Shown here: one piece after another, positions 30,123-64,000 of the stretch | Numbering within the stretch: position 1 is the stretch's first letter | How the letters are laid out: each line of letters starts with the position of its first letter | DNA from: a virus | Lineage: Duplodnaviria; Heunggongvirae; Uroviricota; Caudoviricetes | IMG/VR virus record: IMGVR_UViG_3300032335_000499 | Strand: one strand, 5' to 3' | DNA length: 64,000 nucleotides | The notes under the pieces: generated by a model | What the model was told of the DNA's origin: nothing | What the model saw: the letters and a program-made list of their open reading frames with translations, nothing else | The model's database searches: none | Translations under genes and position numbers: made by a program

Positions 30123-30752
30123 ATGCGCAGTTTAAAACAATATATTGTTGAAAGTGTTCACACTTACAATTACACTATTAAGGTCGCCGGAAACGTTGAT
30201 AAGAACTTCCTTGACATGTTCAAGTTCAATCTAAAGAAGTTCGATCCTATCAAGATTTCTGATCCGGTATCTACACCTATTCAGAAAAGCCCATATGGTT
30301 TTCCTGATCTAGTGAACGAACCAGTTCACATCATTAAAGCAGAGTTTCGTTATCCTGCTACTGAACCAATGATTCAGCAAATTGCGCAGTTGCTAGGATA
30401 TAATGTAAACATGGTTCGTGTTGTCAGTACAAACTTTGATGATAGTATCAATAGTGAGACTGAAGGCTACGCTAACGAAGCAAGTCACAGTCCTGTATTA
30501 GACCACACTGAACTTGAAGAACAGCCTGGCGCTAAAGAAGCTGCTAAGGCATATGGTAATAGCTACCTCGATAGCATTCAAGACCAAATGAAGGGCAACA
30601 CAATTGACATTCCTTACGAAGGTAAGAAGACTCCAAATGCATTTGATCCTTTCAAGCCAGAAACACAAATGGCTACGATGGGCAAAGAAAGCCCAATGAG
30701 CAAGATTACTCGTCCTGCTAAGCCTCAGACAGGCGCAATGGGAGGCAGATGA
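30123..30752 (+). CDS. putative internal head protein
   Basis: MRSLKQYIVE resembles T4 CTS MKTYQEFIAE. Confidence 0.55.
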   Translation: MRSLKQYIVESVHTYNYTIKVAGNVDKNFLDMFKFNLKKFDPIKISDPVSTPIQKSPYGFPDLVNEPVHIIKAEFRYPATEPMIQQIAQLLGYNVNMVRVVSTNFDDSINSETEGYANEASHSPVLDHTELEEQPGAKEAAKAYGNSYLDSIQDQMKGNTIDIPYEGKKTPNAFDPFKPETQMATMGKESPMSKITRPAKPQTGAMGGR

Positions 30753-33490
30753 TGAAAGACATTATGCAAAAGCTAGCTGAATTAGAAGCTACAGCACCTA
30801 AGGTAACGAAGAAGAAAATGTTGAATGAAGATTCGACTACTCCTCCTATCAACGTTTCTAATAAGATTGCATCACTGAAGGATATGTTTGAGGCACTTTC
30901 TGAAAGTATTCCTGCAGGCGCAAAGCCTCTTCCTGTATTGGATCCACAAAATAAACAAGCTGGTATGGGATTTGTTACAAGCAATAATCCTGCCGTTCAG
31001 AACATGCTTAAGGCTCTAGATCCTAAAGATGTGCAAATTGTTCAAGCTCCTGGTCAAGCTCCGGCAGCAGGTCAGCCTGCTCCAGCTGGTGCAACTGGTC
31101 AACCTCAAATGGGTCAGATGCAGATGAAAGAAAAAGACGAAGGTAAGCCAGGCAAGAACTTTGCTAAGATTGCAAAGAGCGCCGGCGAGCGTTATGGTTC
31201 TAAAGCAGCAGGTGAAAGAGTAGCTGGCGCAGTTCGTGCTAAGTTAGCAAAGCAAGGTAAGCTTGAAGAAGAACAACTTGACGAGAAGTTTGCAAGTCAG
31301 CAACAAGCAAAGTTAATGTATGCTGCTGCCGATGACAAAGATGTTTCTAAGAAAACTGGCGTAAGTCAAAAGGTAGCAAAAGAGTTTGTCAAGAAAAGTC
31401 ACGGACAAAAGGTAAGTAAGCTTCCTAAGAAAGTCAAGGAAGGCGACATCCCGTCGTCATCCGGAGTCGATACTAAGGGTGCTGGCTTAGGCGCAGGCCG
31501 TAGTGCAACAACATTAGAGGGTAAAGAGTCTCAGGTTGAAGTTATCGACAATGCATTTAACAGAGAAAACTACAAAGATTTGATTGGTAAGAAATATCCT
31601 AAATCAAAGGCTCCTGCATATGCTAGAGTAAAAGAAGTTAATGAAGGTAAGAAGCCAGACTTCTTAGACCTAGACAAAGATGGTAACAAGAAAGAACCAA
31701 TGAAAAAGGCAGCAGCCGATAAGAAAAAGAAAAAGGTAGATGAATCCATGAATCACAGAATTAGTGCAGCCCGCTTAGAGGGCAAATCACACGGTCTAAG
31801 AGGTCACGCACACTCTGGCAAGAGATACGAAGACCTAGACGAAATGAAGGCATATCACGAGGGCTACAAAGAAGGTCTTGATGAGTGCTATGGTCAGGGC
31901 GTGTACGAAACTGCAATGCCAGCAACAGTTCCTGGTATGGCATCTCAGGCGCTTGACGAAATTGGTGATACTCCGGCAGGCAAGAAGGCACTTGCTTCTT
32001 ATGTAGGTAAGCGGGCAAAGGATATGAGTTTTGACAACGATGAATTTATTTCTGATCTTTCCTTAGGCGATGGAAATGTATGGGACAAGTATGATAAGGG
32101 AATGACCGGAATTCAACGAGCCGCTAAGAGACTGTCCAACGAAGACGAAATGGAAGAAGGCAATGCTTTCACCGCAGCACTTGCAAAGACTCCAAAGGGC
32201 GGTAAGTTTGCAGTAGGTGGAAAGACTTTCACTGACCGTACAGGATACGATGCTAAAGTAAACGAATATGCGTTTGAATCACTTGACCAACAGCTTAATG
32301 CACTTCTAAATGAAAGCGAAGAAGTAAGCGAAGGTCTTTCAGTTTCAATCTCAAAAGGTCAACAGAATTCACCTGACTCAGTAACTATCACTGCACAAGA
32401 TGCAGAAGCAGAACATCTTCTAGCATTTGTAAAGAATGCGGGTCTTGGTCTCTTTGGTGATGACAATGCTGACACACATTCAAGTGCAATGTCAGTTCAA
32501 CCTTCACACGGCGCACCCGACGAAGTTGGCGCAGGCGGCATTGATATCGGTGTAGTTGACGGTCATGATGGTATGATGGGCTTGATGCAGAAATTATCAG
32601 GCATTCAATCAGTCGGCGCCGATGACTACGCCGACGAAGAAGGCGATGAAGAACAACTTTATGGCAATCATCAAGCAGCCGATAAGAAAGATTGCGGATG
32701 TGACGGCGACTGTGAATGCAGTGATTATGATCAACCTTCTAACGAAGCAACTTGCAACGAATGCGGAACATATGAAGGCATGCATGAAGCAGGCTGTTCA
32801 ATGGGAAGCGGAAAAGAAATGGTTGATGAAGTAGAATCAGAAGACCAAATGGAATTTGAAGTAGCAGAAGACAATGCTCCTGATTCAGGTGAGGCAGAAT
32901 CAACTGCTGATGAAAACGCAGAAGCATCAGAGGATATGGCACTAGCTAAAGCAGGTTCAAAGGGCGGCACTTATACTGTTAACGAAGATGGCGACGAAGC
33001 AAGTGAAGAAGGTCCTGAAAGCAAAGAAGGCGAAGGCGATGAAGGAGCTGAAACTGTTTCAGAATCATTCGCTAATCTTTTCAGAAAACTTTCGTTCATT
33101 GCTGAAGAATCAACTGAAAAAGAAGATGACAACGCCGAAAAAGCAGGCAAAAAAGTAGCTAAAGATATCGAACATGACGAAGGTCATACGGGTAAAGACG
33201 ACGACAAGGCCGAGAAAGCTGGAAAGAAAGTCACTAAAGACATCGAATACGATGACAAGAAAGACAAGAAAGAAAAAGTTGATGAGTGGGCTAACAACGC
33301 TGGTCCAGGAAAGACTGTATCTGACACTACTTTTGAACAAGATATTGACTTCATGACTAAAGTAATTGCTGGTGGTCTTAACAAGCCTAAGTCAACTGGT
33401 CAGACTACTATTCCTGTCATTGCAGGTCAAGATGACCGTATGCACGATAATCCAATGGATTGGGCAACTCTTGCAGGTATTAAGAAGTAA
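30749..33490 (+). CDS. modular charged polyprotein, putative head core/cargo
   Basis: 913 aa of short basic and acidic modules separated by LNE/LSE/LEE/LDE/VKE/VNE/VDE; ends LAGIKK. Confidence 0.6.
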   Translation: MMKDIMQKLAELEATAPKVTKKKMLNEDSTTPPINVSNKIASLKDMFEALSESIPAGAKPLPVLDPQNKQAGMGFVTSNNPAVQNMLKALDPKDVQIVQAPGQAPAAGQPAPAGATGQPQMGQMQMKEKDEGKPGKNFAKIAKSAGERYGSKAAGERVAGAVRAKLAKQGKLEEEQLDEKFASQQQAKLMYAAADDKDVSKKTGVSQKVAKEFVKKSHGQKVSKLPKKVKEGDIPSSSGVDTKGAGLGAGRSATTLEGKESQVEVIDNAFNRENYKDLIGKKYPKSKAPAYARVKEVNEGKKPDFLDLDKDGNKKEPMKKAAADKKKKKVDESMNHRISAARLEGKSHGLRGHAHSGKRYEDLDEMKAYHEGYKEGLDECYGQGVYETAMPATVPGMASQALDEIGDTPAGKKALASYVGKRAKDMSFDNDEFISDLSLGDGNVWDKYDKGMTGIQRAAKRLSNEDEMEEGNAFTAALAKTPKGGKFAVGGKTFTDRTGYDAKVNEYAFESLDQQLNALLNESEEVSEGLSVSISKGQQNSPDSVTITAQDAEAEHLLAFVKNAGLGLFGDDNADTHSSAMSVQPSHGAPDEVGAGGIDIGVVDGHDGMMGLMQKLSGIQSVGADDYADEEGDEEQLYGNHQAADKKDCGCDGDCECSDYDQPSNEATCNECGTYEGMHEAGCSMGSGKEMVDEVESEDQMEFEVAEDNAPDSGEAESTADENAEASEDMALAKAGSKGGTYTVNEDGDEASEEGPESKEGEGDEGAETVSESFANLFRKLSFIAEESTEKEDDNAEKAGKKVAKDIEHDEGHTGKDDDKAEKAGKKVTKDIEYDDKKDKKEKVDEWANNAGPGKTVSDTTFEQDIDFMTKVIAGGLNKPKSTGQTTIPVIAGQDDRMHDNPMDWATLAGIKK
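33125..33256 (+). repeat. tandem peptide repeat DD-AEKAGKKV-KDIE-D x2
   Basis: DDNAEKAGKKVAKDIEHD / DDKAEKAGKKVTKDIEYD. Confidence 0.8.
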
Positions 33491-50695: not shown

Positions 50696-50757
50696 TTGAC
50701 AATCGACACCCAGAGTGCTATAGTGTAACAATGGATCATTATAACACTCTGGGTGTC
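50696..50757 (+). promoter_or_regulatory. sigma70 promoter (leaderless) overlapped by a 21 bp inverted repeat
   Basis: TTGACA 50696-50701, TATAGT 50719-50724; 50705-50725 pairs with 50737-50757. Confidence 0.8.
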
Positions 50758-51516
50758 CCACGTGACGCTGATCACGATACAATCAAAAAAGCTTATCGCA
50801 GGCTTGCTATGCAGCATCACCCCGACAAAGGCGGAGATCCTGTACAATTTCAAAAAATTACAGAAGCATATGACACATTAAGTGATGTAGACAAACGCTC
50901 TGCATATGATAACCCGCAAGCAAGACAACAGAATTTTCAGGGCTTCCCCCAAGATTTCAACGTAAATGGGGTAAATCTTAATGATTTGTTCGGGCATATT
51001 TTTGGACAGAACCAAAGAAATACGTCTCCGGTATATCGTACCACCGTTACAGTATCACTAGTCGATTCTTATAACGGAGCCGATCATGTCATACAGTTGA
51101 GTTTACCGAGCGGTATTAAAGTAATTAACATTTCAATTCCTACAGGTGTACAGACTGGGCAACAACTGCGGTACGATAACATCATCGATGGGGCCTCACT
51201 AATTATTGAATTTCATGTGCTTAAAGATTTGAGATTCGATAGAAACGGTTCCGATTTATACGCTAATTATCCAATCTCTGTACTAGATTTAATTGTAGGG
51301 ACTAAAGTTCCATTTCAAGCCATCAACGGAAAGATGCTTGATGTGACTATACCCGCAAAGACACAACCAAATCATCAAATCAGACTTCCCGGGTTAGGGA
51401 TGCCAATTAGTAATACAGGGCAGTATGGTGACCAAATACTATTGCTAAAGCCCTTTGTTCCTGATAGTATATCAAATGATATAATTGACAGTATCAAGCG
51501 TAACCAAAGTAAATAA
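50731..51516 (+). CDS. dnaJ: DnaJ/CbpA-type J-domain co-chaperone
   Basis: DHYNTLGV...IKKAYRRLAMQHHPDKGG; DnaJ C-terminal domain; no zinc finger. Confidence 0.9.
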   Translation: MDHYNTLGVPRDADHDTIKKAYRRLAMQHHPDKGGDPVQFQKITEAYDTLSDVDKRSAYDNPQARQQNFQGFPQDFNVNGVNLNDLFGHIFGQNQRNTSPVYRTTVTVSLVDSYNGADHVIQLSLPSGIKVINISIPTGVQTGQQLRYDNIIDGASLIIEFHVLKDLRFDRNGSDLYANYPISVLDLIVGTKVPFQAINGKMLDVTIPAKTQPNHQIRLPGLGMPISNTGQYGDQILLLKPFVPDSISNDIIDSIKRNQSK

Positions 51517-51535
51517 AAGTAAAGGATTAATTAAA

Positions 51536-53800
51536 TTGCAATCTTCACCCGAAATTGAGAATATCATCGAACGTTCTATTGATGCAGCTAAAGAGCGGCA
51601 GCATCAATATGTGACGGTAGAGCATTTGCTGCTCTCTCTTGTCACTCACCCTCCCTTTAAGAAGTGTCTCAACTCTTTCCATGTTGATACTGACCTTATG
51701 ATTCAAGAAATTGAAGCATATCTTAATGGCTTAAAGGCGATTGAAACTACTGAACCTGATCATCAGCCACGTAAAACTAATACACTTGAACGTGTAATTA
51801 ATCGTTCGGTTACGCAAGTTTTGTTCACTGGTCGTCGCCAAGTTGAAACTATCGATCTTTACATGAGTATTGCGTCTGAAAACAACAGCCATTCTCATTA
51901 TTTCTTGCTCAAGTACGGTGTCGCAAAGAATGAGTTTCTAGGTCATTGGCAGAAGCACTATTCGGGCGGACAATACTCTGCGATTTCTAGTAGCCAAGCA
52001 GACGAAATCCTTGAAGAATACACGATTAATCTTACACAACTTGCTCGTGAAGAAAAGCTTGAACCAGTTATCGGTCGTACTAAAGAAATTGGTGATATCA
52101 TTAATGTTCTTGCAAAGCGTTTCAAGAGTAACGTATTGATGGTCGGTGACCCCGGCGTAGGTAAGACTGCAATCGCAGAAGGCATTGCTAATGCCATCGT
52201 CAATGAAGAAGTTCCTGAATTCTTAATGGACCATGAACTTTATAGTCTTGAGATTGGTTCGCTTCTCGCCGGTAGTAAGTATCGCGGTGACTTCGAAGAA
52301 AAGGTCAAGAACGTGCTTGATGCACTTACTATTAAGAAAAAAGCAATCCTGTTTATTGACGAAGCCCACACTATGCAAGGTGCAGGCGGATCTTCAAATG
52401 GTTCTGTTGACTTCTCTAACATGATTAAGCCCGCTATCACTAAGGGTACTCTCAAGGTTATTGCTTCGACAACTTGGGAAGAGTTCTACGAATCCTTTGA
52501 GAAGGACCGGGCGTTAATGCGCCGCTTCTATAAGGTTTCAGTTGACGAACCTAGTCGTGATAGCACTGTTCGCATTCTTACTGGTCTCTCCGGACGATTG
52601 AATGACTTCCACGAAGTCTACATCACGGGTGAAGCAATTGAAGCCGCAGTTGACCTTGCTGATCGCTACATTCATGACCGTAAGAACCCAGATAAGTCAA
52701 TTGACCTTATCGATGCAGCCTGCGCAAAGCAGCGTGTTCTTATGAACAAGGATGCAGAAATCACTAAAGAACTAATCTACGAACAAGTAGAAAAGTTCAC
52801 AGGCGTTCCTGCTGATAAGTTGAGCGGCGACAACATGGAACGTATTCAGACTCTTGACACTAACGTAAAGAACAAGCTTTATGGTCAAGATGAAACAGTT
52901 GATAAGGTTCTTGAACGTATATATGTTAGCTTTGCTGGCATCGGTAACGACAAGAAGCCTATCGCAAGTTTCTTGTTCTTGGGCCCAACGGGCACGGGTA
53001 AAACAGAATTGGCTAAGCTGCTGTCTAAGAATTTGGATATGCCGCTTCTCAAGTACGACATGTCGGAGTACAGCGAGAAGCATAGCGTAAGCAGCTTGAT
53101 CGGTCCGCCCCCGGGCTACGTAGGCTTTAGCGACTCGCAGGTGCAGGGCGGGCGTCTAATTTCAGACTTGAGCAAGAACCCTCATTCAATCCTGCTGTTT
53201 GACGAAGTTGAAAAGGCTCACCCCGATATTTTCAACATCTTCTTGCAAATGTTGGATGAGGGTACTGTCACTGGTTCAAATGGTAAGCAGGTATCGATGA
53301 AGAATTCCGTAATCATTCTGACTTCGAATCTAGGTTCTGCTGATAACGAAAACAACAACATCGGTTTCGGCAATCTTGACAAGACCGGCGAAGAAGATAA
53401 AGCTCTTAAGCAGTTCTTCAAGCCTGAATTCCGTAATCGTCTCGATCTTATCTGTAAGTTCAACAAGCTTGATAATCTTTCAATCAAGAAGATTGTTGTC
53501 AAGTTCATTGATGAAGTCAAGAAGCCTTTGCTCGAAAAGCACAACATCACGCTTAACCTTAGCGAACCAGCTGTTGACTATCTTGCTGAACAGGGTTACG
53601 ATAGTAAGATGGGCGCACGTCCTCTTGCACGTAAGATTGATGAATTGATTCGTGTCCCGCTTTCAAAGAAGATTCTCTTTGAACGTATCAGCAATGCTAA
53701 TATTATGGTTAACATAGAGGACGGCGTTATTGACTTTGTAGTTACTACAAAGCAAGCAGCGCACGTAGGTGATGATGGCATTATCCAAATTGGTAATTAA
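51536..53800 (+). CDS. clpA: ClpA-type AAA+ unfoldase
   Basis: Clp N domain (VTVEHLLL), GDPGVGKT, GPTGTGKT, IGF ClpP-docking loop, MGARPL; no ClpB middle domain; TTG start after AAGGA. Confidence 0.9.
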   Translation: MQSSPEIENIIERSIDAAKERQHQYVTVEHLLLSLVTHPPFKKCLNSFHVDTDLMIQEIEAYLNGLKAIETTEPDHQPRKTNTLERVINRSVTQVLFTGRRQVETIDLYMSIASENNSHSHYFLLKYGVAKNEFLGHWQKHYSGGQYSAISSSQADEILEEYTINLTQLAREEKLEPVIGRTKEIGDIINVLAKRFKSNVLMVGDPGVGKTAIAEGIANAIVNEEVPEFLMDHELYSLEIGSLLAGSKYRGDFEEKVKNVLDALTIKKKAILFIDEAHTMQGAGGSSNGSVDFSNMIKPAITKGTLKVIASTTWEEFYESFEKDRALMRRFYKVSVDEPSRDSTVRILTGLSGRLNDFHEVYITGEAIEAAVDLADRYIHDRKNPDKSIDLIDAACAKQRVLMNKDAEITKELIYEQVEKFTGVPADKLSGDNMERIQTLDTNVKNKLYGQDETVDKVLERIYVSFAGIGNDKKPIASFLFLGPTGTGKTELAKLLSKNLDMPLLKYDMSEYSEKHSVSSLIGPPPGYVGFSDSQVQGGRLISDLSKNPHSILLFDEVEKAHPDIFNIFLQMLDEGTVTGSNGKQVSMKNSVIILTSNLGSADNENNNIGFGNLDKTGEEDKALKQFFKPEFRNRLDLICKFNKLDNLSIKKIVVKFIDEVKKPLLEKHNITLNLSEPAVDYLAEQGYDSKMGARPLARKIDELIRVPLSKKILFERISNANIMVNIEDGVIDFVVTTKQAAHVGDDGIIQIGN

Positions 53801-54461
53801 AACAGTAGATCGCCCTAACTTATTTTTTAATAAGTTTGTGTATAGGATTAATGTTACAGGTGTACCCAGTGTTCATCGGATAAACAAATGTGCCAACATA
53901 TACGACTATATTGGTTATATTGATAAACTGTATGAAGATTGGGAGTCATCTAACCAAAGATATCCAAATGGATGGTATAGGACACCTCCGAGTTCATCCG
54001 ATATAGACTTAATTAGAGTCGAAAATCTTATTGGATTAATGCAGAAGTATAATGACAAATCCCTAATTACATACAGGAGTGAAAACAGTACCGTAAGTGT
54101 CTATACTTCTGACTTAGTTTTAGCTAAGGAGTTTGCAGATACTTTGTCAGTAGGATTATTAACTCAAGTTAATCCTATGCCAACTGGGGTAATGCTTTTT
54201 AAGCGAGAGCCTCCTGCAAAATATCGTGCATATACAACTAATAACAAGATGCCATCAGACTTTAAAGAAAGTTTTGTTGCTTATCTAGAAAGAACTCCGG
54301 ACGTTAAACCCAGTAGTTCATTTAGTAATTATTTTGCTAGACGTTATAATTTTCTATGGGAGAAGTATTATGTTGATTATGATGATGAGAAGAATCTAAT
54401 GATGATGATGCTAATGTTTCCGGGCATGATAGGAAAGATGTACAAACTAGAAAAGAAGTGA
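53769..54461 (+). CDS. hypothetical protein
   Basis: 230 aa ORF; exact start uncertain. Confidence 0.65.
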   Translation: MMMALSKLVIKTVDRPNLFFNKFVYRINVTGVPSVHRINKCANIYDYIGYIDKLYEDWESSNQRYPNGWYRTPPSSSDIDLIRVENLIGLMQKYNDKSLITYRSENSTVSVYTSDLVLAKEFADTLSVGLLTQVNPMPTGVMLFKREPPAKYRAYTTNNKMPSDFKESFVAYLERTPDVKPSSSFSNYFARRYNFLWEKYYVDYDDEKNLMMMMLMFPGMIGKMYKLEKK

Positions 54462-54488
54462 TAAATACTCTATATATTTTGGAGTATT
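54461..54488 (+). promoter_or_regulatory. late promoter within an RBS-occluding hairpin
   Basis: ATAAATA 54461-54467; AATACTCTA pairs with TGGAGTATT covering GGAG. Confidence 0.7.
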
Positions 54489-55055: not shown

Positions 55056-55241
55056 ATGGAAACAACAATTAATATTAAGGCTCAATTTGAAGCCTTCCTC
55101 GCAGAAAACGAAAAGTTCAACAGTGGCAATGCTGCTGCCGGTACTCGTGCCCGTAAGGCACTTGGTGAACTTGCAAAGTTGTGCAAGGCTCGTCGTAACG
55201 AAATCACTGCTGAAAAGACTGCACGTAAAGAAGCGAAGTAA
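55056..55241 (+). CDS. histone H1-like Hc1-family small protein
   Basis: EKFNSGNAAAGTRARKAL.ELAKL.KARR.EI. Confidence 0.7.
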   Translation: METTINIKAQFEAFLAENEKFNSGNAAAGTRARKALGELAKLCKARRNEITAEKTARKEAK

Positions 55242-55245
55242 TTAA

Positions 55246-56766
55246 ATGAAAGTGGTAGCTATATATCCAGGCAGATTTCATCCTTTTCACAAAGGACATG
55301 CAAGCAGCTTTAAGCAGCTAGCAGAAAAGTTTGGTTTGGATAACACATTCTTAGCTATCTCTGCAAAACAAGAACAACCTAAAAGCCCATTCTCAGCACA
55401 AGATCGTGCTAAGATGGCGGTGTCTTTAGGTATACCTAGTAAGAATATCATTGCTGTGCGTAATCCATACGCGGCTCAGGAATATATTGATCAACTGAAC
55501 CTTGATCCCGAAAAAACAGCATTGATATTTGGTGTAAGTAAGAAGGACATGGAAGGTGACCCTGCACTGGGTATTCCTCCTGATCCCAGATTTGGATTTA
55601 AACCCAAGAAAGACGGGAGTCTTTCTTACTTACAACCTTTTAATAAGAATAAAGTTGACCCTATGTCACAGCATGGTTATATCATGTCAACTGAGGTAGC
55701 AGAATTTCCTATTGCCGGTAAATCTATGCGTGATGCTAGTGCTATACGTAGTGCATATGCAGGCGCAGATGAAAAAACAAAAATGAAAATTCTAACAGAT
55801 TTATACGGGGATGCAGCAGAAAAAATGAAACAAGTATTTGACAACAACTTACAAATTACAGAAAGCATCCGTAGACTTATTGCTATGATTAAGCCTATGC
55901 TTAGTGAAGCAACATTTGAACAGAAGTCTAAGTTTGTCAAGTTACTCAGTGAAGCTAAGAAATCAATGCTTAATGAGGCGATCGGCAATGTTGTAGATCG
56001 TTCATATGACATGACAGATGTTGATGATCGCATTGATTCCGATCAGCGTTTGAAAAAAATATCCAAGCAAATGCTAGAAAAATTAACTTCCAGAGAAGAA
56101 TTCGTAGTGCGCTCTAGATTAGGTCTATCCGGTGAAGAACCAAAGTCACTAAAACAGATTGCTGATACTTTGGGAATTGGACAAGAAAGAGTTAGACAGA
56201 TAGAAGCTAAAGCGGTTTATAAGTTACGTCAAGCTAATGATTTCAAAAATAGACCAATAGATGCAGCCGACAGTAAGATTTTTGCACAACTTGAAGAAGT
56301 AGAACCACTATACAAGGATGCACTAGATAAATATCGACAATATTGGGATAAACATCGCTTTTATCCTACTCCAGAAACAGAAGAAATCAGAAAAAAATTG
56401 TATGCTGAATACAAAAAGTATAGCGATATAAGATCCAAACTACATGATCAATTAACAGTACCTTCATCGTTAACATTAAAAGAAGATGCTACTAACATCT
56501 ATACCAGAAGAATGGCAAATCTAACTAACGATTTAGGTAATGGCTACTTCTTAGGTGATGATAGTTACGATGACGATGACGGATTCAGTAAAGCAGGATA
56601 TTCAGTATATTATCAAGAAGGTGCTGATCAGTATCGCTTAGTTGGTAATGTATCAATGAGTCCTTATAGCAATCCTCCTGGACATATTGAAAGCGAAATC
56701 AAAAAGATTATTGCTTCTGACCAAAATAATCTATCCGAAAGTACGGATTATTTAGAAGAAAAATAA
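55246..56766 (+). CDS. HIGH-type nucleotidyltransferase fused to sigma70 region 4 and further modules
   Basis: YPGRFHPFHKGH and DASAIR; LTSREEFVVRSRLGL...SLKQIADTLGIGQERVRQIEAKAVYKLR. Confidence 0.8.
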   Translation: MKVVAIYPGRFHPFHKGHASSFKQLAEKFGLDNTFLAISAKQEQPKSPFSAQDRAKMAVSLGIPSKNIIAVRNPYAAQEYIDQLNLDPEKTALIFGVSKKDMEGDPALGIPPDPRFGFKPKKDGSLSYLQPFNKNKVDPMSQHGYIMSTEVAEFPIAGKSMRDASAIRSAYAGADEKTKMKILTDLYGDAAEKMKQVFDNNLQITESIRRLIAMIKPMLSEATFEQKSKFVKLLSEAKKSMLNEAIGNVVDRSYDMTDVDDRIDSDQRLKKISKQMLEKLTSREEFVVRSRLGLSGEEPKSLKQIADTLGIGQERVRQIEAKAVYKLRQANDFKNRPIDAADSKIFAQLEEVEPLYKDALDKYRQYWDKHRFYPTPETEEIRKKLYAEYKKYSDIRSKLHDQLTVPSSLTLKEDATNIYTRRMANLTNDLGNGYFLGDDSYDDDDGFSKAGYSVYYQEGADQYRLVGNVSMSPYSNPPGHIESEIKKIIASDQNNLSESTDYLEEK

Positions 56767-56778
56767 TTCCACTACTAC

Positions 56779-56820
56779 TTCCTCTTGTAAATATCTATAC
56801 AAGTTTACTAGAAAGAGGAA
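56779..56820 (+). promoter_or_regulatory. variant late promoter GTAAATA within an RBS-occluding hairpin
   Basis: TTCCTCTT 56779-56786 pairs with AAGAGGAA 56813-56820. Confidence 0.55.
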
Positions 56821-56823
56821 CAC

Positions 56824-57735
56824 ATGGCACGTAAACCAAAGACTACTAAGAATACAATCGCTCCAAACGGGGAAGAAAGAAACATTCCCGTTGAAAAGCT
56901 AGAAGAAATTGCCGAACAGGCTGCACAGGAGCAAGCTCCACAAGAAGGTCAAGTTCAAGTTAACGTTGACTTCCTCCGCACAACTAAGGTTCATATCGCA
57001 ATGCCTTGCTACGGCGGTATGTTGACAGAATCAACTTTCATGTCATTCATCAAGTGGGCAAACACTGCCCGTCAGCTTGGTATTGACTGGACCCTAGAAA
57101 CAATGGTTAATGAATCACTCATTAGCCGCGCACGTAATACACTTACTGCAAAATTCCTTGACATGCCTGACGCAACACACTTGTTCTTCGTTGACGCTGA
57201 TATCGGTTGGGAACCGTGGCACTTGCTCGTTCTCTTGAACCGTGACGTTGACGTTATCGGTGGTTTGTATCCGATGAAGACTATGCCTATCAAGTGGGTT
57301 GTTAACGGATTCGAAGGCGCAGAAGAAGGCGCTGATGGTCTTCAGGAAGTATCAAAGGCTGGTACTGGCTTCTTGCTCATGAAGAAGCATGTATTCGAGA
57401 AGATGAATTCACACCCTGCTGTTAAGCAGTACAAGAATGATATCGGTCTTGATCCAAAGTATGACCAGCACTTGAAGACATACTTCGACACTGCTGTTCG
57501 TCAGAATCGCTACTACAGTGAAGACTGGACGTTCTGTGAAAACTGGAGAGATATCGGTGGTCGCATTTGGGTTGATAAGCGAGTTCTTCTCCGTCACTCA
57601 GGATCATATGTATTCTGCATGGAAAATCAGCAGCATCTATTAGACACTGTTGGCCCAATGTATGTGCAGGCACAGGCAGAAAAGGCAGCACAAGAAGCTG
57701 CTGCGGCCGCTGCACCACAAGTTCCCCCCGCCTAA
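56824..57735 (+). CDS. GT-A fold glycosyltransferase-like protein
   Basis: IAMPCY, SLISRARN, FVDADI (DxD), GTGFLL, SEDWTFC. Confidence 0.75.
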   Translation: MARKPKTTKNTIAPNGEERNIPVEKLEEIAEQAAQEQAPQEGQVQVNVDFLRTTKVHIAMPCYGGMLTESTFMSFIKWANTARQLGIDWTLETMVNESLISRARNTLTAKFLDMPDATHLFFVDADIGWEPWHLLVLLNRDVDVIGGLYPMKTMPIKWVVNGFEGAEEGADGLQEVSKAGTGFLLMKKHVFEKMNSHPAVKQYKNDIGLDPKYDQHLKTYFDTAVRQNRYYSEDWTFCENWRDIGGRIWVDKRVLLRHSGSYVFCMENQQHLLDTVGPMYVQAQAEKAAQEAAAAAAPQVPPA

Positions 57736-57765
57736 TCAGTAATATCTGATTAGTGCATCTAAACT

Positions 57766-57793
57766 GGGGCATCGGAAACGGTGCCCCTTTTTT
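57766..57793 (+). terminator. Rho-independent terminator
   Basis: GGGGCATCG-GAAA-CGGTGCCCC-TTTTTT. Confidence 0.85.
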
Positions 57794-57801
57794 AGTATGA
57801 G

Positions 57802-57808
57802 ATAAATA
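57802..57808 (+). promoter_or_regulatory. late promoter ATAAATA
   Basis: Between terminator and AGGA RBS. Confidence 0.7.
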
Positions 57809-57832
57809 CTATATAATTATAGGAATACCTCC

Positions 57833-58750
57833 ATGAAGATTAACGATATCTATGAAAGCACAACAGCAGGGTCCATTGCTACTGTTGCAGCACCTATGTC
57901 AACACAAAAGCGCAGTGGTGTAGGCAAGGGTGTATATGGAAATGAACCAAAGGACAGCATGTTCAAGGGTCAGAAGACTAAAAAGCCATATGCTAACTCA
58001 AAAGTAAACGAAAGCAAGATGAAAGAACTTGCAATGGATATGCGCAACATGGATAACGGTAACTTCCAAAAGAAGTATAAGAGATCCAAAGAACAACTGA
58101 AGTTTGTATTAGGTGATCCAGACAAGAAGACTGTTCAAGACCCAGTTAAAGAAGGTTACTATTCGGTACGAAGCAATAATCTAAAGCAAGAACTAGAAAA
58201 CAATGGCTGGGAACGAATTCCAGCTCGGGAAGTTCCTGACAATGCCAAATACGGGTACCGAAAGAACGGTGTAGGTAGATTCTATAAAGTAATAGATGAA
58301 CCTTATCATTCGTTTGATGTAAGTTTTGTAAAACCTAGACGAGTAATTGACAAGTTGGTTCCATTAGATACATTGCTTGAATTAATTAGGGGAAGTTCCG
58401 TTACTGATGACAAGAAAACTGTTCAAGAGGCACACTTAGAAGAAGATGATGTAATCATTGTTCCGGGTCAAGGTCGTAGTCGTAAGAATGGATTAATCAA
58501 GCACGGTGAGAGTCGTTTAGACCACGAAGTTGAAATGGCTCGTAGTGACCTATTCAGTGCTGCTAAGAATGCCAAGCAAGTATACGAACTAATTGCTGAT
58601 GTTTCAGAGGAAGAAGGTCTTGAAGGCTGGGTACAAGAAAAGATTATTAAAGCTAATGACTATCTAAACACTATTCGTGAGTATCTAGAAGGTAAGCAAC
58701 TACAGAATGAAATGACCGGCGGCGTCATTGCTGGTGGTGGTGTAGGTTAA
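57833..58750 (+). CDS. modular putative internal head protein
   Basis: MKINDIYE start; VNE/VKE/VQE/LEE linkers; DHEVEMARSDL...LEGWVQEKI module. Confidence 0.6.
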   Translation: MKINDIYESTTAGSIATVAAPMSTQKRSGVGKGVYGNEPKDSMFKGQKTKKPYANSKVNESKMKELAMDMRNMDNGNFQKKYKRSKEQLKFVLGDPDKKTVQDPVKEGYYSVRSNNLKQELENNGWERIPAREVPDNAKYGYRKNGVGRFYKVIDEPYHSFDVSFVKPRRVIDKLVPLDTLLELIRGSSVTDDKKTVQEAHLEEDDVIIVPGQGRSRKNGLIKHGESRLDHEVEMARSDLFSAAKNAKQVYELIADVSEEEGLEGWVQEKIIKANDYLNTIREYLEGKQLQNEMTGGVIAGGGVG

Positions 58751-59178
58751 TGCGTGACATTATCAACCTTTTAGAAGCAGTTGAAAAGGGTTGCCCCCGT
58801 GCCACGCACGATATTAACTTGAATCTTAAGAATAGACAGACTGCAATTGATGAATATCTGTATGGCCCAGCTAATCCAAACAAGCCAGGTTCATACTGGA
58901 AAGACTTAAGCAAAGTATTCAAAGTTGATGAACCTACAGCTAAGTCAATGATGTGCGGAAACTGTGCTGCATTTGATGTAAGCGATAGTATGCGTGATTG
59001 TATTGCTAGTGGTATTAAAGGTGATGAAGATAATATTGATCCTAATGCTACTATTAATTTAAGTGATTTGGGTTATTGTAACTTTCTACATTTCAAATGT
59101 GCAGGAAGTCGTAGTTGTAAAGCTTGGGTAACAGGCGGACCAATCACTGAAAAAGATAAAAATAAGAAGGCTGACTAA
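58750..59178 (+). CDS. Cys-rich putative metal/Fe-S-binding protein
   Basis: CGNCAAF...GYC...FKC...SCKAW; MRDIINLLE start. Confidence 0.55.
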   Translation: MRDIINLLEAVEKGCPRATHDINLNLKNRQTAIDEYLYGPANPNKPGSYWKDLSKVFKVDEPTAKSMMCGNCAAFDVSDSMRDCIASGIKGDEDNIDPNATINLSDLGYCNFLHFKCAGSRSCKAWVTGGPITEKDKNKKAD

Positions 59179-62100
59179 ATGAGTTCTATATTTGATGGCA
59201 TCGGCAATGACGGCGTGGAACAATTAGATGAGAATCTACGCAAGTGGTTCAAAGAGAAGTGGGTTCGTTTCGGTCCTGATGGCAAGATTCGTGGAGCTTG
59301 TGCAAGAGGCGATGACAGTGAAGGTAAGCCTAAATGTCTTCCGCAAAGTAAAGCACATAGTATAGGTAAGAAGGGTCGTAAGTATGCTGCTAGTAAGAAG
59401 CGCAGAGAAGATCCAAACCCAGAACGCAGTGGAAAGGCAAAGAACGTGGCAACTAAAAAGAAAACTAACGAGGGATGGAAAATGGGGGCTGTGGGCGCCG
59501 CAACCGGCGCAAATTTAGGTGCTACTGTAGGAACTGCTATGGCTCCAGGTATGGGCACTGCCTTAGGTGCATTAATAGGTGCAGCAGCCGGTGCTTACAA
59601 CTTGTCTAAAATTGATAATTGGGAAGATTTTAAAATTTGGTTTAAGAGTTTAGGACAAGTCAGAAACAGATCAGAAAAAGAACAAAAAATAATTGATAAG
59701 GCAAAAACAGAATTAGAAATATATACAGAAAACCTCGGGACCTTAAAACAAGCGGTTGGTGAACATATCAACCATACTATTCCGGAAATAATAAAACTTA
59801 TTAAATATAATCAATTTGTTGAAGCTGGGGCAGAGTTTCAAGGAATTCGAGGAACTTTGTTTGCATTAAGAAGTTGGGATATCATAGACCAAAGAGCAGA
59901 GACAATAAAAAATAAAATAAAAAATAAATTTGGAATTATTGGTAGTACGGCGACTGTACTAGATAAAGAATACCTAATTGACTTGTTAACTGAATTGCAG
60001 GCAACGTTATCTACCCTAAACTTTGGCAACGCCTTCCCTAATCAGGTTAAAGACGCAATAATTAACAAAAAGGATAATACCCCGGTAATTACAAAATCCC
60101 CTAATCAAAGCGTAAACCCCGAGTTACAAAAACGTTTGGCAGCCCGCAAGGCAGGAAAACCAACATACAGTGGCGGACTAGAAGAAGGTAAGAAATCTAA
60201 CGAGGGCGTACCATTTAATGAATGTCCGAAATGCCGCGGTCCTATTGTTCACGAATCAATGATGAATGAAAAGCAGGATGCTTGCTATCACAAAGTCAAG
60301 AGCCGCTATAAGGTTTGGCCTTCTGCTTATGCGTCAGGTGCTTTAGTACAGTGCCGTAAGAAGGGTGCAAGCAACTGGGGTAACAGTAAGAAAAATGAAA
60401 ACAATGTTATGAAGGGCATTGTCGATGAAGGCAAAAACTTCGTACCAAACAACATTCTCACTGAAGGTAAAGTTTTACTAGAAGGTAGAGTAGTTCGTAA
60501 GCTGTGGGAAAGTGCTGGTCAAAAGATTATAGAAGCACAACTTACTCCACAGCAGATTCAACAAATCTTTCAAGCAGCAGAACAAGGACAAACAACAGCA
60601 GGCGGCAACCGCACGTTTGCTGGTAAAGGTGTAGACGCTGCTAGTGCAGTCAATAGAGCATGGGAAGATTTAAAGACTAAGATTCAAAATACTGGTCCAA
60701 TTCAGAACATGGATGCGATGTACGATAAAGCTGCCGAAACTATGAAGAAATCCACAGGCGGCGATAAGGGTGCAATGCAATATGTTGAAAAATATCGTAA
60801 CTTTGCCAAGAAACATCCAATTGCACAAAGCTTCTTGTATGCTGCACTTATTGCGGCGGCGGGACTTAGTGGCGCTGGCTTAGGTGGTGCGGCAGCATTA
60901 GGTCTATTAAAGATGACTGACCGCTTGTTACAAGGTGACAAGTTTAGTAGTGCATTGTATAAGGGCGGCGTAACAGGCGCACTAGCATATGGTGCAGCTA
61001 AAATCGGTGATCTACTACGTCAACCCGCAGCTCCTGGACAGCCGGTCGAAGTTAAACTTCCCGACGGAAAAGACATTGTAGTTAAGCCCGGGGACACGTT
61101 GAGTGAAATTGCACAAAAGAATAATGTCAGTGTGCAAGACCTTCTTAAAGCAAATAAAGATATTTTAAATCCTGACGCAATTTCAGCAGGACAGAATATA
61201 AATGTACCAAACGCTACAGGAAATCCTACCTATCAAGGTGGAGTGGGTACAGCGTCCGATACTCTTGCTAAAATGCAAAGTGGACAGTATGCACAAAGTC
61301 CAATCTCGTATCGTCAAGCAGCTAAGGCTGGATTACAAGGCGTCGGAGATCAGGTTACTAGTGTTCCTGGCGCTAAGTCAGTAGCTAGAGCCGCAGCCGA
61401 TCAAGCAGTAAATGCACCTAGTGCAGCCCCAGATGCTCCCGCTAGCGCAGTAGATCAGGCACCTGATGTTAATCAAGCAGCAGACACCGCAGCTTCAACC
61501 GCAACGGACAACATTGCACGAAATGATATTCTTAACAGTGTTCATAAAGACATTCGTGGTAACGTAGTAGATATGGATTTCGAAACTGGCAGCTGGGCTA
61601 GATTAGCTAATGGTAGAATCGTTGATCCTGATTTCCCAATGGATGCTGGTGCTAACAATGATGCAATGGCAGCATATAAATTGATGAATAAAGCCAATGA
61701 AGGTATACAATTAAGTAAATATCAAGTTTTCAATATTTTGGAAGCTGCTATTGTGTATCAGACTGTAATTAATGAAGGCTTACTAGATAAGTTTAAAGGT
61801 GCAGCAAGTAAAGTTGGGCAGTATGCTGCAACTAAAGGTAAAAACATTACAACTAAAATCACTGCTGACAAACTAATGCAAGCATGGAAGAAAGCAGGAA
61901 GTCCAACAGATTCAGAGCAGGTGAAGGCTGTGCTTAAAGCTGCCGGTGTTGGTAACCAAGTTATTGCTGCTGTAATGCCTGTACGAGCATCAATTGCCGG
62001 CGTGAGTCCAAACGCAACTACCGGTACTATACAATCAACTATGAAGGCAACGACTCAACCTACAGTTGCAGCTAAGCCTCAGGCACCTGCTCAGGCAGCA

Positions 62101-63243
62101 CAGCCTACTAGTGCGATTGGACAGGGCATTGCGCAATCTCCACAATCCAATGTGAATCCAGAACTTTATAAACGTCTTGCTGCTCGTAAAGCGGGCAAGC
62201 CAATATATTCAGGCGGACTAGAAGAAGCTAAAGCAAAGCAATACGTAAAGCCATACAATGACCCTCAGACAGGCGAACAGCTTGGTTGGGTTTCATCAGA
62301 TGGCTATCATAAGAAGTATTGGCAGAAGTTTGCTAAGGCAAAAGCATATCAACACGCTAAACTCAATCCTGATGAAGTTCAAGAAAACTACACTGGAGAG
62401 TTCGCAGCAGAAAAGACTCCTGCAATCAATCCATACGGTGGGCTAAAGGATAATCAATTCAGAGGTGCTATTAGCGAAACTCCGACTGACAATCCTACAG
62501 GTGCTAGCGGTGAAGGTGGCTTGAGAAAGTATAGACCAAAGCCATCCGGGACATTCAAAGAAGACCTATCACAAGCAGATGTTGACGGTATTGCACGATT
62601 TGCAGATAAACTATATAAGAAATTAGGCATAGATATTACTTTTACTAAGCACTTTATGGATCGTGTAAATGATGAGCGTAACGGTAAACCCATTAGCGGA
62701 GCTGAATTAGTACGCTTGTTTAAGAAAGAGTATGAGCGTTGGGGAAAAGATGTTGCACAAATGGGTCCTGATATGGAAGGCACATTTAAAGATTTGACAA
62801 CTGATATTAACTTACCATTCGTATTACGCTGGGATAGAGACGAAGAAGAATTAGACTTAGTAGCTAAAACTGTAATGCGTAAAAAGAATTTCAAAACAGA
62901 TAATCAAGAATTCCCAGTTGACGAAGACACTGCATACGCAGGTGGTATGGGTCAAGGTGGAAACGCTGGACAATCATATCGTAAGTTCAAGCCAAAGAGT
63001 GCTGGCACATTTAAAGAAGATGAGCTTGATGAAGCTTGCTGGAAGGGTTATCACAAAGAAGGCAACAAGAAAATGTTTGGTAAGACATATCCAAACTGTG
63101 TCAAGAATACTAATGAAGAACAGCTTGACGAAAAGTGCTGGGACACTCATAAGCAAGTTGGTATGAAGAATAAAGGTGGAAGACAAGTCCCTAATTGTGT
63201 ACCAAAAGAAAGTTCTATCATGAAGGGCTTAAAGAGTTTATAA
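59179..63243 (+). CDS. 1354 aa multi-module polyprotein (glycine zipper, LysM, Cys-pair peptides, BECR-like module)
   Basis: Unrelated modules separated by xxE linkers; LysM VVKPGDTLSEIA...NPDAISAGQNINVP at 61075-61209. Confidence 0.75.
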   Translation: MSSIFDGIGNDGVEQLDENLRKWFKEKWVRFGPDGKIRGACARGDDSEGKPKCLPQSKAHSIGKKGRKYAASKKRREDPNPERSGKAKNVATKKKTNEGWKMGAVGAATGANLGATVGTAMAPGMGTALGALIGAAAGAYNLSKIDNWEDFKIWFKSLGQVRNRSEKEQKIIDKAKTELEIYTENLGTLKQAVGEHINHTIPEIIKLIKYNQFVEAGAEFQGIRGTLFALRSWDIIDQRAETIKNKIKNKFGIIGSTATVLDKEYLIDLLTELQATLSTLNFGNAFPNQVKDAIINKKDNTPVITKSPNQSVNPELQKRLAARKAGKPTYSGGLEEGKKSNEGVPFNECPKCRGPIVHESMMNEKQDACYHKVKSRYKVWPSAYASGALVQCRKKGASNWGNSKKNENNVMKGIVDEGKNFVPNNILTEGKVLLEGRVVRKLWESAGQKIIEAQLTPQQIQQIFQAAEQGQTTAGGNRTFAGKGVDAASAVNRAWEDLKTKIQNTGPIQNMDAMYDKAAETMKKSTGGDKGAMQYVEKYRNFAKKHPIAQSFLYAALIAAAGLSGAGLGGAAALGLLKMTDRLLQGDKFSSALYKGGVTGALAYGAAKIGDLLRQPAAPGQPVEVKLPDGKDIVVKPGDTLSEIAQKNNVSVQDLLKANKDILNPDAISAGQNINVPNATGNPTYQGGVGTASDTLAKMQSGQYAQSPISYRQAAKAGLQGVGDQVTSVPGAKSVARAAADQAVNAPSAAPDAPASAVDQAPDVNQAADTAASTATDNIARNDILNSVHKDIRGNVVDMDFETGSWARLANGRIVDPDFPMDAGANNDAMAAYKLMNKANEGIQLSKYQVFNILEAAIVYQTVINEGLLDKFKGAASKVGQYAATKGKNITTKITADKLMQAWKKAGSPTDSEQVKAVLKAAGVGNQVIAAVMPVRASIAGVSPNATTGTIQSTMKATTQPTVAAKPQAPAQAAQPTSAIGQGIAQSPQSNVNPELYKRLAARKAGKPIYSGGLEEAKAKQYVKPYNDPQTGEQLGWVSSDGYHKKYWQKFAKAKAYQHAKLNPDEVQENYTGEFAAEKTPAINPYGGLKDNQFRGAISETPTDNPTGASGEGGLRKYRPKPSGTFKEDLSQADVDGIARFADKLYKKLGIDITFTKHFMDRVNDERNGKPISGAELVRLFKKEYERWGKDVAQMGPDMEGTFKDLTTDINLPFVLRWDRDEEELDLVAKTVMRKKNFKTDNQEFPVDEDTAYAGGMGQGGNAGQSYRKFKPKSAGTFKEDELDEACWKGYHKEGNKKMFGKTYPNCVKNTNEEQLDEKCWDTHKQVGMKNKGGRQVPNCVPKESSIMKGLKSL
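60112..60186 (+). repeat. 25-codon linker repeat, copy 1 (copy 2 at 62152-62226)
   Basis: VNPELQKRLAARKAGKPTYSGGLEE vs VNPELYKRLAARKAGKPIYSGGLEE. Confidence 0.9.
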
Positions 63244-63247
63244 TCTG

Positions 63248-64000
63248 ATGACTTCAGACTTAGCAAAACTAATGGAAACTATCAGTATGCTACAGTCGGA
63301 ACCAACCCCTGAACCCATCATAGAAAGTATTGAATCGACCGTGCATCCACTATTACAAGCAATGCAAGAACTTAAAGAAGACGGTGTAGTTGAATCTGTC
63401 GATGCACACACTATCTACAGCAATGTGCAAAGCGGACACCGAGAACCAGATGACTTTATTGAAGGTGATATTGGTGACAGAATTTATTGGTTTGATGATT
63501 ATAAATTGTCTTCACTTCCTATATCTAATCTTAATCTAGATGAACATTATGTAGATGAAGACCTAGTAGATGACTACATTGAGCATATTAAATATTCACC
63601 AAAAACTATGCCTCCGATTGTTTATGATCCTATTGCAAAATCAATAATTGATGGAATACATCGTGCTAATGCTTATGCTAAGTTAGGATACGAAACTATT
63701 CCTGCTTATGTTGGCTTAACAAAATCTGATAGTTATGGCGAGCGTGAATCAGATAATATTGAAGAAGAAATCGCTTATCACGGTACAACAGATGATATAG
63801 CTGAGTTCTATCCACTCACTCACTTTGGCACTGAGAAAGCTGCTAAAGATAGAATGACCTATAAGAAAATCAAAGATGGTAAAATCTATAAAGTAGATTT
63901 AGACATTAAGAATCCATTAACTATTAAAGACTTTCCTGGCATTCACTATGACAGATTATATGCCTTTGAATTAAGAGATAAGAAACTAATTAGTCAAAAA
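63248..64000 (+). CDS. multi-module protein: ParB/Srx-like plus ADP-ribosyltransferase-like domain (3' truncated, not in ORF track)
   Basis: Manual translation: MTSDLAKLME...MPPIVYD...IIDGIHRANA...IEE-EIAYHGT...THFGTEKAA...GKIYKVDLDIKNPL; open to the window end. Confidence 0.75.
   Translation, partial: MTSDLAKLMETISMLQSEPTPEPIIESIESTVHPLLQAMQELKEDGVVESVDAHTIYSNVQSGHREPDDFIEGDIGDRIYWFDDYKLSSLPISNLNLDEHYVDEDLVDDYIEHIKYSPKTMPPIVYDPIAKSIIDGIHRANAYAKLGYETIPAYVGLTKSDSYGERESDNIEEEIAYHGTTDDIAEFYPLTHFGTEKAAKDRMTYKKIKDGKIYKVDLDIKNPLTIKDFPGIHYDRLYAFELRDKKLISQK

Follow-up and report, generated by a model that had tools for sequence, protein, structure and literature searches.

Late genes in a 64,000-nucleotide stretch of tailed-phage DNA (IMG/VR record IMGVR_UViG_3300032335_000499; this whole stretch is called the window here) probably encode prohead cargo polyproteins of a T4-related jumbo phage, which would be cut at Glu sites by a protease of the gp21 type. 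Judged from the sequence, the probability of this reading is about 0.62. The central gene is open reading frame (ORF) 59179 (59179-63243), whose product of 1354 amino acids (aa) is a chain of modules. A preliminary description of the window had proposed that such chains are loaded into the prohead and cut apart there into separate effectors, and named six ORFs (55246, 57833, 59179, 63248, 30749, and 2039) and 15 linkers ending in Glu. All six ORFs were present at the positions that it gave, and 15 of 15 linkers were located within them. The idea was favored by the N-terminal leaders, the joints between modules, the exchanged cassettes, the protease of the relatives, and a homologous family of cyanophage virion proteins, whereas ORF 55246 and the labels “RNase-like” and “ParB-like” did not fit it well.

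The polyprotein and its parts, like all candidate cargo ORFs described here, lie on the plus strand. The chain begins with an 18-aa leader (59179-59232) that ends in QLDE and is a variant of the Ser-Ser-Ile...Gly-Ile type, termed class ii. Module A (59233-59472, aa 19-98) is a basic unit of about 80 aa with one Cys pair, and elsewhere it makes up a viral protein on its own, about 85 aa long, both in the viral clusters of the ESM Atlas and among the ORFs of the relatives. An optional cassette (59473-60204, aa 99-342) contains a glycine-zipper segment with weak Pfam matches, a helical region, and a linker ending in GLEE and then KKSNE. Module B (60205-60399, aa 343-407) consists of B1, a CxxC knuckle ending in MMNE, and B2, a basic Cys-pair unit of 43 aa whose similarity to DUF5872 was weak (E = 0.002, below the cut-off). 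The alignment of module B (A3) contained 25 invariant columns, and B2 was found without B1 in locus L076 and in cyanophages. Whether B1 and B2 form one domain could not be decided from the AlphaFold model, which was of low confidence for this module. A MAFFT alignment of aa 1-440 with the module segments misplaced module B onto module A and was dropped.

A leader-like spacer (60400-60465, aa 408-429) with the sites IVDE and ILTE leads into the second optional cassette of 599 aa (60430-62226, aa 418-1016), which begins directly after IVDE. It comprises a conserved block (aa 430-627) with a Gly/Ala-rich hydrophobic stretch, then a LysM domain (aa 634-677, 61078-61209; Pfam E = 2.7e-12), an Ala/Pro/Gln region of low complexity, and, for the second time, the 25-aa linker ending in GLEE; its internal blocks are common to loci L001, L002, L005, and L007-L012. 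The next segment (62227-62562) holds a small α/β domain (aa 1017-1059) and a disordered linker (aa 1060-1128) with EVQE, AISE, and TFKE. In the AlphaFold model, aa 1013-1059 were folded and the predicted local distance difference test score (pLDDT) was <50 across aa 1055-1127. The following helical domain (62563-62892, aa 1129-1238) belongs to phrog_23027 and has a homologue with 49% identity in Methylophilales phage Melnitz. It had been called RNase-like, a label that was not confirmed: the AlphaFold model was all-helical and not BECR-like, and no PDB match was found at E≤0.001. The last part (62893-63243) contains a disordered linker with PVDE, TFKE, and ELDE and the modules C1 (aa 1286-1310) and C2 (aa 1319-1345), which are predicted by AlphaFold to be Cys-stapled cationic β-hairpins (pLDDT 90-94) with QLDE between them, and a leader-like tail after PKE closes the C-terminus. 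A Foldseek search with the C-terminal model returned nothing at E≤0.001; for the hairpins of module C (63034-63213, 25 residues each), the match to α-defensin was non-significant (probability 0.95, E = 1.4) and this likeness was not retained. A, B, and C are three small basic Cys-pair modules. Other T4-type phages have about 120 related ORFs in which they recur, with their order and position permuted in the large ORFs (BLASTP). These tiny units are the commonest modules, and they resemble internal head proteins or peptides more closely than enzymes.

The joints between the modules were highly conserved. The density of [LIVMF]-x-E, which had been proposed as a test against ClpA, was not discriminating when judged by shuffling and with a joint-derived position-specific scoring matrix: the focal ORFs had 1.65 times the expected density and 15 controls had 1.24 times, and the matrix gave 0.67 and 0.21 sites per 100 aa, respectively. 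Because this whole-protein signal was weak, positional tests were used instead. In the joint test, which was anchored on the invariant core residues of five non-homologous modules, a hydrophobic-x-Glu tripeptide stood directly before the module in 170 of 174 unique contexts, whatever lay upstream (A 44/46, C 51/52, B2 42/43, the WSEKYK module 19/19, and the AQQAAIA module 14/14). Among 198 DNA-unique contexts, P1 was Glu in 193 and Asp in none, though Asp was the commonest residue at P2, and P3 was Leu (100), Ile (45), Met (20), or Val (13) in 178. The L/I-x-E rule, with Glu obligatory and Asp not found at P1, therefore holds at the level of the motif. All six Leu codons and both Glu codons are in use at the joints, and the two EQLDE peptides, at aa 18 and aa 1318, differ in their codons; this synonymous variation indicates that the constraint acts on the peptide and not on the DNA.

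The ends of homology pointed to the same positions. Across 124 non-redundant relatives, a Glu joint lay within -3 to +8 of 57% of the 2341 homology breakpoints, compared with 24.3% ± 0.9% of random positions. In the predicted structure of aa 1000-1354, four folded units were separated by stretches with pLDDT<50, and all eight strict sites were located within these linkers or at domain edges. By position, breakpoints, model, and insertions or deletions alike, the claim that module boundaries fall at x-x-Glu was borne out, above chance where position was tested.

Variants from the same phage population showed the joints as the end points of exchange. Four contigs encode an ORF 58750 protein identical to that of the window, together with polyproteins of 1354, 779, 415, and 676 aa, and the contigs L089, L090, and L091, which share this identical protein, come from different samples. 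Such divergent polyproteins next to an identical neighbor point to very recent cassette turnover within one phage population. ORF 59179 and the 415-aa variant had 86% identity in the aligned columns and differed by cassettes of 244, 599, and 62 aa (end points aa 98/342, 417/1016, and 1249/1312) and by one replacement, all of which start and end exactly at x-x-Glu joints. The 244-aa cassette is absent from L090, with end points TNE|G and SNE|G; L090 and L091 both lack the 599-aa cassette (end points VDE| and LEE|); and the 62-aa cassette is absent from L090, in which the linker aa 1060-1128 is also replaced by a copy of module C with end points at Glu sites. Of the linkers quoted earlier, IVDE, GLEE, EVQE, TFKE, PVDE, and QLDE proved in this comparison to be true cassette boundaries. 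Moreover, ORFs that are separate in the window were fused elsewhere (57833+59179, 58750+59179, and 55246+59179), in seven architectures.

The strongest evidence is provided by N-terminal leaders, which the preliminary description did not see. Leaders of 8-10 residues with the pattern M-[KR]-x-x-[DEQ]-hydrophobic-hydrophobic-x-E resemble the capsid targeting sequence (CTS) of T4 and open ORFs 57833, 58750, 4263, 30123, and others in the window, as well as about 100 ORFs of the relatives. The relatives were 80 loci from a scan of IMG/VR, whose ORFs were compared with ORF 59179 by BLASTP. A strict 9-residue form of the pattern started 106 of 1638 unique ORFs of these loci and occurred at 26 of 8920 internal Met residues, an enrichment of about 22-fold at true N-termini, and all 106 ORFs were on the strand of the polyprotein. 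Many of the relatives' leaders read M-R-A-x-E-F-[LI]-x-E. In T4, targeting by the CTS has been mapped to residues 4 and 7 (F7) and processing to I8 and E10, and Asp at position 10 blocks cleavage (PMC9026906). The equivalents of F7, I8, and E10 (F, I/L, and E) are conserved positions in the leaders here; as references, the N-terminus of IPII was checked in the T4 record and that of gp24 in records of T4-like coliphages. The sheath, tube, helicase, and chaperone genes of the window have no CTS-like leader.

ORF 59179 itself bears the different, class-ii leader. The peptide S-S-I-[LM]-x-G-[IL] directly follows Met1 in 18 representatives; elsewhere it occurred in 28 internal and four C-terminal tail copies. 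Two of these 32 follow a Met and are mis-called starts, and each true internal or tail copy listed has a Glu just before it. Cutting after this Glu would give the same N-terminus as removal of Met from the stand-alone proteins. In addition, modules in stand-alone ORFs begin, behind their leader, at the same residue as within polyproteins. With this equivalence of Met1 and the internal Glu, the internal spacers look like the retained leaders of genes that were once separate.

The window carries the gene content of a T4-related myovirus, including a gp41-type helicase, tube, gp4, gp15, and neck proteins; homologues of the T4-type core genes for sheath, gp4, gp15, gp41, and gp44 were present, and a clamp loader, a ClpA-like ATPase, and DnaJ are also encoded. 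The sheath protein has 1196 aa, and its best identity (44-47%) was to the sheaths of the jumbo phages PA5oct and Atu_ph07. No match of the region to isolated phages was obtained with megablast. The window's own contig (L088), located by exact protein look-up, is an ENA metagenome scaffold of 267,742 bp (ERZ28595322, KRAE22-1 scaffold_2) that is identical to the window across 15,251 overlapping bases; scans of IMG/VR and JGI metagenomes for exact patterns had not turned it up.

The protease gene had been placed outside the window, which was confirmed, since no homologue of the relatives' protease, scaffold, or capsid genes was found in the window. All five complete or near-complete jumbo relatives with the polyprotein (317-525 kb) encode Peptidase_S77 (PF03420) above the Pfam cut-off. 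The gene adjoins those for a gp22-like coiled-coil protein and the Gp23 capsid protein, and this capsid protein contains several candidate Glu sites in its N-terminal 45 residues.

Late expression of the candidate cargo genes was also consistent with the sequence motifs. The late-type promoter GATAAATAC occurs in 11 copies, compared with 4.5 ± 2 expected, and 10 of the 11 are on the plus strand. A terminator-like hairpin with a T-run (57766-57793, plus strand) and then GATAAATAC (57801-57809) head the operon 57833-58750-59179-63248. Another copy (54460-54468, plus strand) heads an operon of small ORFs followed by ORF 55246, and copies at 30088 and 1771 lie upstream of ORFs 30123/30749 and of the operon with ORF 2039, respectively. 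The placement of these genes in late-promoter operons was therefore upheld at the level of the motif for 57833-63248, 55246, 30749, and 2039. The exact T4 late promoter TATAAATA was set aside in favor of the local consensus, as it has one copy, before the sheath gene. The genes for DnaJ and the ClpA-like AAA+ protein (50696-53800) lie behind a promoter of the sigma-70 type (TTGACA N17 TATAGT), and similar promoters were seen upstream of ORFs 18542, 19413, and 44135, so that early and late promoter classes are distinguishable in this phage.

Homologous modules are present in a family of cyanophage virion proteins. Gp114 of cyanophage Syn9 and its relatives carry A-like, B2, and C modules, and in a GenBank note this family bears the name T4-GC119. 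Among the proteins detected in purified S-SM1 virions is T4-GC119, with 13 peptide counts (Table S8, PMC3037559), and its gene length varies from 276 to 2985 nt across cyanophages (PMC3037559). The cytidylyltransferase T4-GC190 was detected in S-SM1 virions as well, with 25 counts (PMC3037559), and the Syn9 copy of T4-GC190 begins with a CTS-like leader of 10 residues. Homology between the nucleotidyltransferase of ORF 55246 and this enzyme was marginal (E = 0.003 pairwise, no link by tblastn) and was not relied on. The annotated GTG start of Syn9 gp114 (L087:763-2094) is possibly wrong; an internal Met 16 codons downstream opens a peptide (T-Y-N-E-I-F-N-E) close to the T4 CTS.

From these patterns we infer a route of targeting, cleavage, retention in the head, and delivery to the host. 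The leaders of two types, M-[KR]-x-x-[DEQ]-hydrophobic-hydrophobic-x-E and M-S-S-I-[LM]-K-G-[IL]-x-x-E, would act like the T4 CTS and bind the scaffolding core. The Peptidase_S77 protease would then cut after Glu in [L/I/M/V]-x-E and also in some other x-x-E sequences, which would strip the leaders and split the long ORF products at the module joints. The predicted products are the basic Cys-pair units (A, B2, and C), enzymes (nucleotidyltransferase and ART-PolyVal), binding modules (LysM and sigma region 4), and acidic spacers. Fusion, fission, permutation, and swapping at the joints would be free of cost, as the products are cut apart anyway, and this would explain the extreme plasticity of the locus.

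Several observations weigh against the cargo-polyprotein reading. It is conceivable, though unlikely, that only the N-terminal leader is lost and the long products remain intact internal or ejection proteins, whose joints are flexible linkers and points of recombination. Repeats of 16-17 nt in the DNA flank two of the cassettes, including a direct repeat matching at 16/17 nt around aa 99-342, which suggests that recombination at the linkers also contributes to exchange; the DNA microhomology at some joints would in itself promote recombination at these places. On the other hand, several joints are without DNA microhomology, P1 was never Asp in the 198 contexts while synonymous codons varied, and Met1 and an internal Glu can precede one and the same peptide. 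One could take the conserved tripeptide for a part of each module, the motif density is not diagnostic, and, in contrast to the T4 rule, P3 is Lys, Thr, or Pro at many of the joints that precede the class-ii peptide. LysM and the glycine-zipper segment would be unusual as cargo bound for the cytoplasm and could serve as the core of one envelope-spanning ejection protein, and polyvalent proteins like the N4 virion RNA polymerase are packaged unprocessed (PMC5512222). The free permutation of modules and the fusion and splitting of ORFs are hard to fit to one integrated machine of this kind.

Loading and the protease were questioned by further points. The gp21-type protease of the window's phage is inferred from its relatives. 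Related modules also occur in podoviruses, which are not known to have a T4-type protease. In virions of Syn9, T4-GC119 went undetected (PMC3037559). ORF 55246 has neither a leader nor a motif excess (z = 0.9), and ClpA, with 1.04 matrix sites per 100 aa, and the clamp loader are also rich in such tripeptides, as would be expected if the candidate cargo were ordinary cytoplasmic late proteins, neither packaged nor processed, and the patterns were habits of the lineage such as helix caps or translation-start preferences. We regard this as improbable because the leader is enriched at N-termini, does not occur in the window's genes for sheath, tube, helicase, and chaperones, and matches the functionally mapped residues of the T4 CTS, the homologous cyanophage family is a virion protein, and helix N-caps prefer Ser, Thr, Asp, or Asn over an invariant Glu. 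Processing by another agent, either an in-cis peptidase or a Glu-specific protease of the host after injection, seems very improbable: self-cleavage by a zincin-like metallopeptidase domain (MPTase) has been suggested for polyvalent proteins (PMC5512222), but Pfam and PHROGs found no peptidase family in the focal ORFs, and the site rule fits the gp21-type proteases that the relatives encode.

The other ORFs of the polyprotein operon also resembled head cargo. ORF 57833 (57833-58750, 305 aa) opens with an 8-aa CTS-like leader ending in IYE (57833-57856), which resembles the N-terminus of T4 gp24, and its excess of [LIVMF]-x-E has z = 2.5. Between its conserved N- and C-blocks lies an inserted cassette of about 90 aa (approximately aa 108-196); the insert is absent from its homologues, in which the two blocks are joined directly. 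The leader and the first mature residues (57833-57900) are similar, too, to the part of the relatives' capsid protein that follows its last site (Ser/Thr-Ala-Gly-x-Ile-Ala-Thr), and by this resemblance the N-terminus of ORF 57833, gp24, and the capsid segment may dock at the same place in the prohead. ORF 58750 (58750-59178), a Cys-rich protein of 142 aa with a 9-aa CTS-like leader ending in LLE, is fused to the polyprotein in some relatives (L030 and L039) and had no family match in Pfam or PHROGs.

ORF 63248 (63248-64000) is cut by the window end at 64000, and its 251 aa are the first part of a polyvalent protein of 842 aa, whose complete form is supplied by L088. Behind a leader ending in LME come a ParB-like motif and ART-PolyVal, which starts at aa 176 and continues beyond the end of the window; the protein also holds a methyltransferase-like stretch and DUF6934 in two copies, which start after TSE| or IDE|. 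ART-PolyVal (PF18760) was matched in the 842-aa form with 35.2 bits (Pfam cut-off 31.2), and both DUF6934 copies were likewise confirmed by Pfam. The ParB-like label rested on the motif, with no Pfam match at E≤1, and was not kept. Among the module labels given earlier, nucleotidyltransferase, sigma region 4, LysM, and ART were all recovered by Pfam, while RNase-like and ParB-like were not. About 2.7 kb past the window end, a ferritin-like (Dps-type) gene (L088:17201-17644) follows the ART-PolyVal protein and is kept in the variant contigs L089 and L090. The next ORF (L088:17647-20427) has a GTG start and encodes >920 aa with a leader-like peptide ending in LLE; its product is homologous to a family of 576-976 aa proteins that bear CTS-like leaders in relatives. 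By this leader and homology, the cargo region extends well past the window.

ORF 55246 (55246-56766, 506 aa) consists of a nucleotidyltransferase (aa 1 to about 244) ending in MLNE, sigma-70 region 4, and a C-terminal domain; Pfam matched CTP_transf_like at aa 6-97 and Sigma70_r4 at aa 277-329. Some homologues stop at aa 234-242, and others are combined with A/B/C modules (L016) or preceded by CTS-like leaders (L036, L040, and L067). With no leader and no motif excess of its own, ORF 55246 is counted as a weaker member, placed among the cargo through these homologues. In the same late-type operon, a 61-aa ORF (55056-55241) has a precomputed Pfam match to Hc1, the chlamydial histone H1-like family. 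Beside candidate head cargo, this Hc1-like protein could take part in DNA condensation.

Further candidates are located upstream in the window. ORF 30123, within 30123-33490, has a leader ending in IVE, and ORF 30749 (30749-33490, 913 aa) has one ending in LAE. The product of ORF 30749 is acidic, Lys-rich, and of low complexity, with 12 high-scoring sites, a motif excess of z = 2.8, a Cys-rich acidic stretch, and a short motif PDFLDLDKDGNKKEP that PHROGs links to families of “virion structural protein”. It may be a substrate of the scaffold or core type rather than a chain of effectors. Within 2039-5351, three ORFs are candidate cargo: ORF 2039 (2039-3403, 454 aa), which is Pro/Thr-rich with a leader-like start; ORF 3400 (from 3400), with a pol-beta-type nucleotidyltransferase motif and a short leader ending in LTE; and ORF 4263 (from 4263), KxDG ligase-like, with a 9-aa CTS-like leader ending in LNE. 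The homologue of ORF 4263 in Syn9 (E = 3e-10) lies directly upstream of the gene for the virion cytidylyltransferase.

More generally, it is an evenly balanced question whether T4-related jumbo phages and marine cyanomyoviruses share one general cargo system of self-contained leader/cleavage units, whose genes are free to fuse, split, and change their order, and polyproteins diced in the prohead. The products of such a system may number dozens and include disulfide-stapled cationic hairpins, basic DNA-associated proteins, and anti-host enzymes, and the prohead protease may replace the in-cis peptidase of classical polyvalent proteins. If the cargo-polyprotein reading is true, the CTS/gp21 paradigm of T4 widens from a few single-module proteins to a combinatorial polyprotein kit, which would be found widely among uncultured jumbo phages and the abundant cyanophages of the ocean. 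The hypervariability of these loci even among near-identical phages would then be explained, and the leader together with the x-x-Glu joints would be a sequence rule that predicts packaged, possibly injected proteins. It would also link Aravind's polyvalent proteins to a trans-acting head protease and would offer leaders and linkers of natural origin with which several proteins could be loaded into T4-type capsids.

The closest known system is the packaged cargo of T4, namely IPI, IPII, IPIII, Alt, and gp24 (Mullaney and Black 1996; PMC9026906, PMC3012670). Both have a leader about 10 residues long in which the key residues agree, the L/I-x-E rule with an obligatory Glu, and late expression (here at the motif level only), as well as small basic cargo with an ADP-ribosyltransferase, cargo genes that are hypervariable among related phages, and a Peptidase_S77-type protease, which here is found in relatives. 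CTS-bearing cargo is known to be diverse among T-even phages (PMC3012670). T4 cargo proteins have a single module and one leader, whereas here ORFs of up to 1354 aa join many modules and contain internal sites, leader-like peptides serve again as internal spacers, modules are permuted, a second leader class is present, and many internal sites are without a hydrophobic P3; in addition, the present system is a prediction from sequence. The T4 proteins gp22, gp67, and gp68 provide another parallel, in which a precursor is cut by gp21 at many L/I-x-E sites into small peptides, some of which are retained in the head. With its acidic character and many sites, ORF 30749 resembles this core-protein class. 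Unlike the modules here, which are concatenated, fold independently, and are encoded separately elsewhere, the T4 core proteins form a scaffold with a role in assembly.

Polyvalent proteins (Iyer, Burroughs, Anand, de Souza, and Aravind 2017, PMC5512222) are large late-gene proteins with 2-15 unrelated conflict domains. ORF 63248 shares with them the signature ART-PolyVal and a ParB-like motif, and mosaic, fast-shuffling architectures and predicted delivery with the DNA are also common to both. Two or more unrelated domains per ORF were found in ORF 63248 (ART-PolyVal and DUF6934), ORF 55246 (nucleotidyltransferase and sigma region 4), and ORF 59179 (LysM and others). An in-cis zincin-like MPTase, common though not universal, was proposed for the polyvalent proteins; none was found here, where processing is proposed to occur in trans by the prohead protease at short motifs and loading by a CTS-like leader. 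The packaged ADP-ribosyltransferases of the T4 Alt type were stated not to sit in genuine polyvalent proteins (PMC5512222).

The inner-body and ejection proteins of phiKZ-like phages (proteases phiKZ gp175 and SPN3US gp245; PMC5694885, PMC10052503) are likewise cut after Glu in a three-residue motif, with multiple sites per substrate and propeptides that are thought to target the prohead. They differ in the S/A-x-E motif, propeptides of >100 residues, another lineage, and the absence of permuted small-module chains. Here P3 was mostly L/I/M/V, the leaders had 8-18 residues, the core genes were of the T4 type, and the relatives encoded Peptidase_S77 and Gp23. T4-GC119 (Syn9 gp114; Sullivan et al. 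2010, PMC3037559) shares the A-like, B2, and C modules, variable length, and detection in S-SM1 virions; it differs in that it was annotated only as hypothetical or structural, a protease-jointed modularity was not described there, and several of its joints are without the motif. Our literature search found no description of gp21-jointed polyproteins with reused leaders, and the paper on Sinorhizobium phage PhiM9 contained no processing data. CTS/gp21 cargo and polyvalent proteins are each known, and what would be new is their combination in protease-jointed polyproteins.

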